Positions 8,980 to 64,000 of a DNA stretch of 64,000 nt are shown one piece after another; the first letter of the stretch is position 1, and each line of letters starts with the position of its first letter. Origin of the DNA: an uncultured delta proteobacterium (GTDB lineage: Bacteria > Myxococcota_A > Polyangia > Haliangiales > Haliangiaceae). A model generated the notes under the pieces. That model was not told the DNA's origin. It made no database searches and saw nothing but the letters and a program-made list of their open reading frames with translations. Where the stretch lies: assembly GCA_963848295.1 (NCBI GenBank), contig CAWKDB010000010.1, positions 2,912,001-2,976,000 on the forward strand. Reading direction: 5' to 3'. Made by a program: the position numbers and the translations under genes.

Positions 8980-10752
8980 ATGATCATCCTCGAACATCAC
9001 AAGCAAGCGAAGCGCGAGATCGTCGCGCGATTCCAGCAGCTCGCCGAAGTCGCAGAAGCTGTCGGCATGATCACGCTCGCCCGCGACATTCGCGCGACGC
9101 GGATCCCGAAGCTCGAGGCCGAACGGTTCCACCTCGTCGTGCTCGGCGAGTTCAACCATGGCAAGTCGACGTTCGTGAACTCGTTGCTCGGCGCCGATAT
9201 CTTGCCGACCGGGATCACGCCGACCACCGCCTCGATCAACCACGTCGTCTACGCGCCGCATCCGACGGCGCGAGTCGTGCTCGGCGACGGCGAGAGCCGC
9301 CACCTCGACCCGGGCCAGCTCAAGGAATGGGTGACCGTCGCGGGCGGCCATGCGAACGAGGTCGCATTCGTCGAGCTCGGCTATCCGAGCGACCTGCTCG
9401 TCAACAACGTCGTGCTCGTGGATACACCGGGCGTCAACGATCTCAACGAGCAGCGCGCCGAGGTCACGTACGGCTACGTGCCACGCGCCGACGCGGTCGT
9501 GTTCCTGCTCGACGCCGGCCAGGCGCTCAAGGACAGCGAGCGCGAATTCTTGAAGTCCCGCGTACTCGAGAATGCGCGCGATCGGCTGATCTTCGTGCTC
9601 GGCAAGATGGACATGCTGTCACCTGACGAGCGCACCGCCGTCGTCGACTACACGCGCAAGGGCCTCGCCGGCATCGCCGCAGATCCGGTGCTGTTCGCGC
9701 TGTCCGCACGCGACTGGGCGAAGTCGCACGACCCCGCGAGCGGCATGCCGGAGCTGATCGCCTACCTCGAACGGTTCCTCGCGCGCGATCGAGCGCAGAT
9801 CATCCTCGACAACGCCGCGGCCGACGCCGCACGCACCGCGAGCTACGTCGAATCGAACCTCGGCGTGCGCATGCGCTCGTACGAGCTGGATCTCGGCGAG
9901 CTCGAGACCCGGATCGCATCCGTGCGCGAGCAACTCGATTCGAGCAAGCGCAAGCTCGACGAGCTGCACATCCGGATCGACGCGGATGCCAGCTCGATCA
10001 AGGCCCAGGTCGGACTCGATCTCGAGGCGTTCGCGAAGACGTTCGTCGCGGTGCTACCGGTCCAGATCGACGCGGTCGACGCCGACGACGTCAAGCTCTA
10101 CCTGACCGCGTTCATCGAGGACAAGTTCAAGGAGTGGGCCGAGCTCGAAGGCGCGAAGCTCGCCGCGATGCTCGAGCACCTCGCCGAAGAGGTCATCTCG
10201 ATCACGAACGAGAACGTCGCCGCGGCGGCGGCCACGCTCGCGGAGCGGCTCGGCCCCGAGGACGCGAACGTCGAGATCACCGTCGATTCGTTCAAGTACG
10301 ACGTCGGGATCTATGCGGTCGGTGCGCTCGGCACGACCGTGATGCTCTTCGTCAACGTCCTCGCCGGTGGCCTGCTCACGCTCGCCGCGCCGATCTTGGC
10401 GATCGTGCTCAAGTCGAAGATCGCGGGCGACATCCGGGTCCAGGCCAAAGAGCGAGTCCCCGCCGCGATCCTCAAAGCGGCGGAAGCCATGAAGCCGCAC
10501 TTCGACAAGTGCATCGATGACTTCGGCAAGCGCCTGTCCGAGTTCGTGTCGAACGCAGGCAACACGCTCTACAAAGGCATCGGCGAGATCCTCGACCGCA
10601 CGATGGCCGACCGCCGCGAGCGGGGCAGCGAAGTCGGCGAGATGAAAACATCGACCGCGACGCAGATCGCGCAGGTCCGGGCCGCCTCCGCCTCGCTCCG
10701 CCAGCTCCGCGAGGGCCTGTGGACCCCGGTCGACGATCCGACCCTTTCGTGA
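8980..10752 (+). CDS. Bacterial dynamin-like GTPase (DLP1)
   Basis: G1 GEFNHGKS, G2 PTT, G3 DTPG, G4 GKMD; coiled coil and hydrophobic paddle. Confidence 0.9.
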   Translation: MIILEHHKQAKREIVARFQQLAEVAEAVGMITLARDIRATRIPKLEAERFHLVVLGEFNHGKSTFVNSLLGADILPTGITPTTASINHVVYAPHPTARVVLGDGESRHLDPGQLKEWVTVAGGHANEVAFVELGYPSDLLVNNVVLVDTPGVNDLNEQRAEVTYGYVPRADAVVFLLDAGQALKDSEREFLKSRVLENARDRLIFVLGKMDMLSPDERTAVVDYTRKGLAGIAADPVLFALSARDWAKSHDPASGMPELIAYLERFLARDRAQIILDNAAADAARTASYVESNLGVRMRSYELDLGELETRIASVREQLDSSKRKLDELHIRIDADASSIKAQVGLDLEAFAKTFVAVLPVQIDAVDADDVKLYLTAFIEDKFKEWAELEGAKLAAMLEHLAEEVISITNENVAAAAATLAERLGPEDANVEITVDSFKYDVGIYAVGALGTTVMLFVNVLAGGLLTLAAPILAIVLKSKIAGDIRVQAKERVPAAILKAAEAMKPHFDKCIDDFGKRLSEFVSNAGNTLYKGIGEILDRTMADRRERGSEVGEMKTSTATQIAQVRAASASLRQLREGLWTPVDDPTLS

Positions 10753-10840
10753 GGGACGGTGTTCACCTTGTCAACTTGCGCTCCGGCGGAGGCTGAATAA
10801 TCTCAGCGCCTTAGTTGGGGACGGTGTTCACTTTGTCAAC
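10753..10840 (+). repeat. Paired 24-bp direct-repeat element, variant copies (10753-10775, 10817-10840)
   Basis: GGGACGGTGTTCAC(C/T)TTGTCAAC twice, period 65 bp, starts right after the TGA at 10752. Confidence 0.85.
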
Positions 10841-10881
10841 CAGCCGGCCAAGTGCCAGAGCTAGTCGCTGTAGGCTGACTC

Positions 10882-62926: not shown

Positions 62927-63772
62927 ATGCGTTTCGTCACGAGCTTGACCGTGTTGTTCATCGCCGGAACTGCCGTCGCGGGGCCCGCGCTCGACGATGA
63001 CAAGAACGCCACACCGACCCCGGCGCCCGCGCCGGCTGCGTCCGGCACGGACCCCACCGCCGCTGGAGGCGGAGCGGGCACCGCTGCACCGACGACCGAG
63101 GCGCCTAGCCCCTTGGCCGAGAAAGTCTCGTACGGCTTCGACATTCGACTGCGCAGCGAGTGGGTGCCGCAGGCGATCCTCGGCCTGTTCATGAAGTCGT
63201 CGCCGGGCGGTGCTCAGAGCGCAGCGATCGGCGCCGATTTTGTACGCCGGCGTGGCGACACCGAGCTCGCGTTCGGCATGGAGTACGAGCAGATCAACCC
63301 CAAGCAGGGCGTCTACGTTCAGAGCAACAGCAACGTCGCGGACGGCGACACCGTCGACTACATCCTGTCGCCCGAGAATGCCGGCAGCAACTTCGGCTGG
63401 GTCACGTTCGAGTTCACGTTCATCGGCCACAAGCCGTTCAACAAGTACGTCTCGTTCCGCTACGGCATCGGCGCTGGCCTTGGCGTCCTGACCGGAGGTC
63501 TCTATCGGATCGACACGCAGTGCGCGGCCGGCACGACCGACGCGACCGCGGCGACCGGCTGCGTTCCCCCGCCATACGGTCAAACCGGTACCGTCTCGCC
63601 CGACCACCCCGGCGATCCCGAGCCGGGCAAGTACGACCTGCCGCCGGTCTTCCCGGTCTTGAACGCCCTCGTCGGCTTCCAGTTCCACCCGGTCGAGCAC
63701 ATCGTCATCAACCTCGAAGGCGGCCTCCATACGTTACCCTTCGTCGGCCTCTCGGTCGGCGCGATGTGGTGA
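62927..63772 (+). CDS. Putative outer-membrane beta-barrel protein
   Basis: Signal peptide, alternating hydrophobic strands, C-terminal Trp. Confidence 0.7.
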   Translation: MRFVTSLTVLFIAGTAVAGPALDDDKNATPTPAPAPAASGTDPTAAGGGAGTAAPTTEAPSPLAEKVSYGFDIRLRSEWVPQAILGLFMKSSPGGAQSAAIGADFVRRRGDTELAFGMEYEQINPKQGVYVQSNSNVADGDTVDYILSPENAGSNFGWVTFEFTFIGHKPFNKYVSFRYGIGAGLGVLTGGLYRIDTQCAAGTTDATAATGCVPPPYGQTGTVSPDHPGDPEPGKYDLPPVFPVLNALVGFQFHPVEHIVINLEGGLHTLPFVGLSVGAMW

Positions 63773-63866
63773 CGCTGTCTCTATTGTCAACTTAGGTCGA
63801 ATCTCGCGTTCTGGAGATCGCGGTAATTACGAGCGTTTCGCCGGGGACGCTGTCTCTATTGTCACC
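63768..63866 (+). repeat. Paired 24-bp direct-repeat element (63768-63791, 63843-63866)
   Basis: Period 75 bp; fills the whole gap between two convergent stop codons. Confidence 0.95.
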
Positions 63867-64000
63867 TAACGCTTGCGCCGCAAGTCGCCGACGCGGAGCG
63901 TGAGCTTCTCGGCATCGAAGTACTCGGCGAGCGGGATCGTGAACTTCCGGCTCGCGCCGGTCAGCTCCTTCCACTGCTGAGCATCGATCGTGCCGTGCGC
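63866..64000 (-). CDS. selB: Selenocysteine-specific elongation factor, C-terminal winged helix (partial)
   Basis: Manual translation ...WKELTGASRKFTIPLAEYFDAEKLTLRVGDLRRKR*. Confidence 0.85.
   Translation of the reverse strand, partial: AHGTIDAQQWKELTGASRKFTIPLAEYFDAEKLTLRVGDLRRKR

Follow-up and report, generated by a model that had tools for sequence, protein, structure and literature searches.

Dispersed terminal repeats of TIRtron type with their heads at stop codons in a Haliangiaceae genome

Why should a short dispersed repeat come to lie, gene after gene, with the same end upon a stop codon? The question is raised by a stretch of 64,000 nucleotides (hereafter the window; contig CAWKDB010000010.1, positions 2,912,001 to 2,976,000, assembly GCA_963848295.1) from an uncultured member of the Haliangiaceae, in which a first-pass annotation described a mobile repeat whose GGGAC or GTGAC end docks at stop codons. 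The genome (7.78 Mb, 85% complete, the contig of the window being C10; here G000) carries 266 scattered copies of the repeat, the same sequences that bracket two TIRYT genes as terminal repeats; these genes encode HUH/Y1 transposases whose tail resembles DnaA. The class, the TIRtrons, is known and the repeats described here are a further member of it, an assignment much safer than any mechanism put forward for the docking. Throughout, the head is the GGGGAC end of the repeat and the tail its opposite end, whilst the offset is the start of the head minus the end of the stop codon, in nucleotides.

The window holds nine arrays with 20 copies (Table 1). Six heads lie at offsets of -5 to +3 from a sense stop, at the genes first named for this (the dynamin-like gene, the open reading frame (ORF) 14631-15509, tsaD, mnmE, gyrB and the gene ending at 63772); one sits in the last codons of a WYL gene, as was also described, and is read through; and the two arrays listed from the outset as exceptions, at 17054 and 46166, face the start codons of fpg and of a DUF72-like ORF. 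The array at 63768 occupies all of the space that separates two convergent stops, as described. Neither the supposed anti-sigma factor nor the supposed beta-barrel protein has a Pfam match; the former, ORF 14631-15509, lies downstream of a gene for an extracytoplasmic function sigma factor and was read off the sequence, having been missed by the gene caller used.

The pattern holds across the genome. Genes were called with our own hexamer model (6,982 genes), and docking was counted for confident calls and for gaps of less than 600 nt. Fifty-five of the 94 heads that face a stop lie at -5 to +4, compared with 9-10.5% under uniform insertion into element-free gaps (p 9e-30); the docking of heads at stops is real and far beyond chance. 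Tails facing a stop fall in the same interval in 8 of 50 cases (head versus tail, p 6e-7), a contrast that is inflated because, at the cleaner sites, the last repeat is followed by non-host bases (from a few to about 20), which lengthen the tail distances. The offsets occupy ten positions and all three stop codons are represented. In 13 cases the gene reads through into the array, and in 10 cases the element supplies a TGA. The 41 heads that face starts are widely spread, 38 of them at a distance of at least 11 nt.

The sense orientation that the first-pass annotation had also claimed is weak: where co-directional gaps hold a single orientation, 26 arrays are sense and 16 antisense, which is not significant (p 0.16). 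What the arrays prefer above all is convergent gene ends. They occupy 47 of 999 convergent gaps, compared with 13 of 933 divergent ones and 50 of 3,830 that are co-directional, and the impression of a sense orientation arose for the most part in convergent gaps, in which either orientation faces a stop.

Related genomes repeat the pattern, although their counts are not independent, these genomes being kin. Of the 96 outer heads of 48 related TIRtrons, 76 lie no further than 150 nt from a sense stop with coding support, 34 of them at -5 to +4 and 13 exactly at -2. Dispersed copies in other myxobacterial genomes have such a stop at 47 of 77 first heads (19 at -5 to +4), one genome contributing only 1 of 9.

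The repeat unit is 25-27 nt long, G[GT]GACG-N9-TTG[AT]CA[AC]C, and weight-matrix scans, which gave no match in a reversed 4.9-Mb control, sort the copies, spread over 158 arrays, into four subfamilies: A (152 copies), B (71), C (33) and D (10). Most arrays are tandem doublets with a period of 73-75 (A), 65 (B) or 65-66 nt (C), and many are faced by an inverted partner array. Within family A the repeats are 92% identical and the linkers 41%; since the linkers are mutually related, with a positional consensus, a reading as CRISPR-like mini-arrays was set aside without a search for cas genes. What had been taken for a single element is mobile and polarised as described, but not single, the array at 10752 belonging to the period-65 subfamily and a copy of a third type standing at 46118. 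Likewise, the rule that a first copy may begin with GTGAC but later ones always with GGGGAC applies to the window and not to the genome, where the GTGAC head is found in 31 of 62 first and 19 of 68 later copies of family A (p 0.012).

Two partner genes were found by reading between inverted arrays. That of family A (C10:2679443-2680393) encodes 316 amino acids and lies between two doublets of its own family with their heads outward (C10:2679351-2680552); that of family B (C10:1101402-1102325) encodes 307 and is placed likewise between family-B doublets (C10:1101284-1102401). Both loci lie outside the window, and the two proteins are 54% identical. They score below the Pfam cut-off and reach E values of 5e-11 and 1e-10 with the RAYT model NF047646, again below its cut-off. 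H59, H61 and Y117 are invariant across an alignment of 30 homologues, and the predicted fold (pLDDT 92) is matched best by TnpA-REP (4er8, E 1e-6), with the ISDra2 and IS608 transposases also found. For the C-terminal DnaA-like helix-turn-helix (HTH) domain the signals are singly weak and concordant when taken together: the predicted fold superposes on the DNA-binding domain of DnaA (3pvp) with a root mean square deviation of 1.9 and a TM(target) of 0.78, weaker at E 0.012; Bac_DnaA_C (PF08299) is detected weakly in the family-A gene (E 0.001); a profile search matches DnaA chains at E 0.002; and the family-B gene searched alone gave no HTH match. A tail box, TT-N3-CAAC, stands at a constant spacing from the head and recurs in related terminal inverted repeats (TIRs); it loosely resembles the DnaA box given in PMC6006769 and is a candidate site for the DnaA-like domain (L131 residues 223-290). 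Nine Pfam Y1_Tnp genes were also considered as partners and rejected, the A/B head motif being present at none of their nine loci. These short Y1 genes (L001-L009, including C10:3806926 and C2:330154 of G000) are without GGGGAC repeats and several have a long conserved upstream segment in common, which suggests a separate mobile family.

Homologues of the partner genes carry GGGG-headed inverted repeats of their own at 48 of 55 loci. Position 7 of the repeat is G here and in 67% of the 48 related TIRs, and A in 31%; the GGGGAC part agrees with the published GGGGWSAS, which is itself a majority consensus rather than a rule (PMC3733652, PMC6006769). Among 80 congeners the motif is present in eight and a homologue of the partner gene in 43, a tally that includes G010; six of the eight motif carriers have the homologue, which in G013, G014, G080 and G090 lies between copies of the motif.

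TIRYT, TIRtrons and dispersed TIR families were defined by Di Nocera, De Gregorio and Rocco in 2013 (PMC3733652), and the group was placed by Quentin et al. (2018) in subgroup 2.1.2 of TnpA-Y1 subclass 2.1 (PMC6006769); only these two treat TIRYT in the literature searched. What we describe has in common with them a Y1/HUH gene with a DnaA-like HTH tail, inverted ends headed GGGG[AT]C, one gene per repeat family and copies dispersed as singles, dimers and clusters. It differs in a head, GGGGACG or GGTGACG, that is one or two positions off GGGGWSAS, in ends that are tandem doublets of fixed 65- or 74-nt period, and in number, 266 copies as compared with families called 'moderately abundant' in the text available of PMC3733652. 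Within the accessible parts of the two papers no myxobacterium is named and no stop-distance analysis of TIRs is given, the Bertels preprint (10.1101/2021.07.10.451892), as far as it could be consulted, adds nothing further on stops, and a search that left out most subscription papers found nothing published on TIRs docking at stops.

The repetitive extragenic palindromic sequences (REPs), together with BIME, REPIN and the associated RAYT enzymes (PMC3333891, PMC8266576), appear to use the same catalytic fold, judging by the top match to 4er8, and likewise combine a stationary gene with dispersed cognate repeats that prefer convergent and co-directional gaps. REPs are found no more than 20 bp from the 3' ends of genes, and their GTAG ends often supply a TAG, according to the portion of PMC3733652 available, just as the ends of the present repeats often supply stops. 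The canonical arrangement, a GTAG at the foot of a stable hairpin, was not found here: there is no GTAG guide in the consensus and no strong single-repeat hairpin, the arrays are mainly direct doublets, and the enzyme has an extra HTH. With the IS200/IS605 elements (IS608, ISDra2) the partner proteins share the HUH-Tyr fold and the arrays the absence of target duplication. IS608 reads the target TTAC; here there is no fixed tetranucleotide or other short target 5' of the insertion, the upstream context being variable save for a T/C bias, and no lagging-strand bias (leading to lagging 69:53, p 0.17). In further contrast to that group, the two partner genes are syntenic in a sister genome, and the nine other Y1 genes lack the motif. 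Target duplications, which the first-pass annotation had proposed to look for and which mark classical miniature inverted-repeat transposable elements moved by a DDE transposase, were absent from 85 arrays (mean longest 2.81, compared with 2.89 in permutations).

How the heads came to rest at stops was approached through the sister genome (G097, about 88% identical), using the first 100 of its 201 motif matches together with the orthologues of the window. At orthologous sites family-A copies read GTCGCT in G097 and GTCTCT in G000, an indication that they have changed in concert. C-terminal length differs between the genomes in 16 of 51 head-docked genes, compared with 4 of 24 tail-facing genes and 4 of 67 element-free controls (p 4e-4 for heads against these controls). 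Of 30 arrays that the two genomes share, 20 differ in the distance from stop to head or in the length of the protein; a few rows of the comparison may be mispairings. In some examples one genome has a spacer and a native stop that the other is without, and there the repeat or the junction provides the stop. Seventeen sites were chosen that are filled in G097 and look empty in G000. At nine of them host DNA did not resume nearby, two had a zero or overlapping empty gap, and two proved to contain partial arrays in G000; one is probably the scar of two fused heads (56449 in the window), and three have short gaps that are mostly replaced, one of them retaining part of its spacer. The element thus usually replaces the host spacer rather than interrupting it. 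Just to the right of the window (C10:2977765-2977865) a family-A doublet of G000 corresponds to a family-B doublet in G097, one family having replaced the other.

Comparison of the window with congeners adds detail at single genes. The stop of gyrB is native because its final residue is the same in all 18 congener loci containing the gene end (21 fetched), and G097 has a doublet there at the same offset. The convergent stops on either side of the array at 63768 share 4 nt in two of the three congener loci with this gene end; the exact fill thus follows from a zero gap, and the head contributes Trp and TGA in place of an aromatic or Leu end. In the WYL protein 13 residues encoded by the repeat have taken the place of LDQA. 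At 10752 G097 has a TAG at the same codon and the same array. The product of tsaD is 2-9 residues shorter than at six same-genus loci, a difference that is suggestive only; a 10-nt stretch around its stop (18203) recurs at the ksgA start beyond the array (18005-18025), as if an overlapping stop and start had been regenerated upon insertion.

From these observations we lean, with little more than even confidence, towards a reading in which the repeats reach the stop by repeated nicking and rejoining at the head, halted by selection on the coding sequence. By analogy with TnpA-REP, TIRYT would both spread and cut the repeats, with the DNA at the head nicked and joined again many times over; TnpA-REP cuts many sites around its repeat, up- and downstream and across more than 400 nt, and then rejoins, and HUH enzymes leave a 5'-phosphotyrosine and a free 3'-OH (PMC3333891, PMC8266576, as far as available). 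Neighbouring spacer would be lost or exchanged until a coding sequence, or a promoter with its ribosome site, resists, and the changes at the head junction would be net losses. Short matches between head and stop context (TGAC, TAGG, TAGCT) would favour the final joint; overshoot would be tolerated where a stop comes from the repeat itself, whether at offset -5 or by read-through, and heads facing starts mostly stay at least 11 nt away.

Several points weigh against this proposal. Lineage-specific arrays are already docked, mostly at -5 to +3, and mostly keep the native stop, as does gyrB; two sites had a zero or overlapping empty gap and another, with its head at +5, still has part of a 60-nt gap, so that direct insertion at the stop fits equally well. 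An outgroup tells loss from gain at a minority of sites. The gene calls rest on our own caller, the contrast between heads and tails is inflated as described above, families C and D yielded no cognate TIRYT in the 85%-complete assembly, and no measured TIRYT activity appears in the literature found.

Insertion by TIRYT directly where translation ends, akin to the stop-codon-targeted insertion that the first-pass annotation had suggested, is a tenable though less probable account, the target being single-stranded DNA just past the stop, exposed in an R-loop after the ribosome has left or by colliding convergent transcription. It would explain the sharpness of the offsets, the 3.5-3.7-fold enrichment of convergent gaps, the early docking of lineage-specific arrays on native stops, the peak at -2 (13 of 76) among outer TIRtron heads in other genomes and the lack of replichore bias, and R-loop single-stranded DNA has been proposed as a substrate of TnpA-REP in the part of PMC3333891 available. 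However, co-directional gaps show no significant sense bias, 41 heads face starts, and direct targeting alone leaves the shifting junctions, the raised C-terminal change and the replacement of spacer unexplained. A bolder version, which we regard as doubtful, would have TIRYT sense translation ends, set the head at in-frame stops rather than at a motif and keep rewriting C-termini and 3' spacers throughout the genome; the TTG[AT]CAA box, which lies 16 nt within each repeat, would be read by the DnaA-like tail.

That the host keeps the repeats for a role at 3' ends, be it termination, processing, mRNA stability or the binding of a protein, with proximity to stops selected, is improbable, and the 3'-untranslated-region role first suggested is not upheld. 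REPs do have such roles, as reported in the accessible text of PMC6006769; arrays follow the core genes gyrB, tsaD and mnmE and persist at many of the orthologous sites in G097. On C10, 51 of 122 arrays lie within 400 kb of dnaA (2.54-3.34 Mb), compared with 20 expected; dnaA itself is in the window, and the family-A TIRYT gene is also in this zone. Family-B linkers have a motif resembling that of integration host factor 3 nt ahead of the second head in 15 of 24 cases (3.8 in shuffles), a lead only. Set against this, there is no common fold: only three of the nine arrays in the window are clearly ahead of shuffles in folding, and a repeat on its own is not (-2.2 kcal/mol, z 0.0). Terminator-like sites are at chance (11 compared with 8.8 in 8900-28000, one overlapping an array), and the window has no Rfam match at gathering score. 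The linkers share 41% identity, antisense copies are common, and the motif is in so few congeners (8 of 80). An outward hybrid promoter with a -35 TTGACA on the reverse strand was also rejected, the single promoter-like site in 8900-28000 not being within an array.

Recognition of a short target containing TAG, TGA or TAA in the manner of IS608, stops being hit as look-alikes, is very unlikely: guide-based site choice is known in the enzyme family (PMC8266576, in the part available), TGAC is common to the head variant and to TGA+C stops, and the TTA.CT motif ending family-B linkers is matched by some empty sites, but a stop-like triplet is present at only two of the 41 heads that face a start (11% background) and the docked heads spread over ten offsets and all three stops.

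Two enzymes with their cognate repeats, a sister genome and 266 copies make the cut site, the choice of target and the cause of docking directly testable. The turnover of C-termini at docked heads suggests that the repeats edit the ends of core genes.

Table 1. Repeat arrays of the window and a candidate scar, with positions counted from its first nucleotide.
Feature	Position	Strand	Offset	Context
Family-B doublet, period 65	10752..10841	+	-1	head overlaps last base of TGA of dynamin-like gene
Family-A doublet	14534..14632	-	-2	head overlaps TAG of ORF 14631-15509
Family-A doublet	17054..17152	+		head 58 nt from fpg start, facing it; ksgA runs antisense through copy 2
Family-A doublet	18105..18203	-	-1	head overlaps TGA of tsaD
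Family-A doublet	27534..27632	-	-2	head overlaps TAG of last mnmE piece
Family-A triplet	39047..39220	+	+3	after native gyrB stop
One C-type copy and family-A doublet (46166)	46118..46265	+		head faces start of divergent DUF72-like ORF
Family-A doublet	47647..47744	-	-42	joined within last codons of HTH-WYL gene; frame reads through copy 1
Candidate scar of collapsed inverted array, two fused heads	56449..56458	.		between convergent genes
Family-A doublet	63768..63867	+	-5	between two convergent stops; head gives final Trp codon and TGA of + gene

The 10 nt at 56449 are likely to be the scar of a collapsed inverted array, to judge from sequence comparison: G097 has a three-copy inverted array at this locus, and the 10-mer is unique in the genome. 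Upstream of dnaA (32299-32437) G097 has an inverted C-type pair which the window is without. No RNA run containing this sequence was listed; four DNA sequencing runs were compared over 9000-28500; contigs of one (X1), which may be the source sample, are identical over the 10752 and 17054 arrays, and one low-depth contig of another (X2) has two inserted bases at the 10752 head, evidence too thin to count. The mnmE gene is split over several frames, with TrmE_N and the helical domain in separate ORFs (27631-28936 and the 14631-15509 region), likely through assembly indels or decay. A further tandem array at 23738-24090, of about six copies of a unit of about 50 nt, is unrelated to the TIR repeats.

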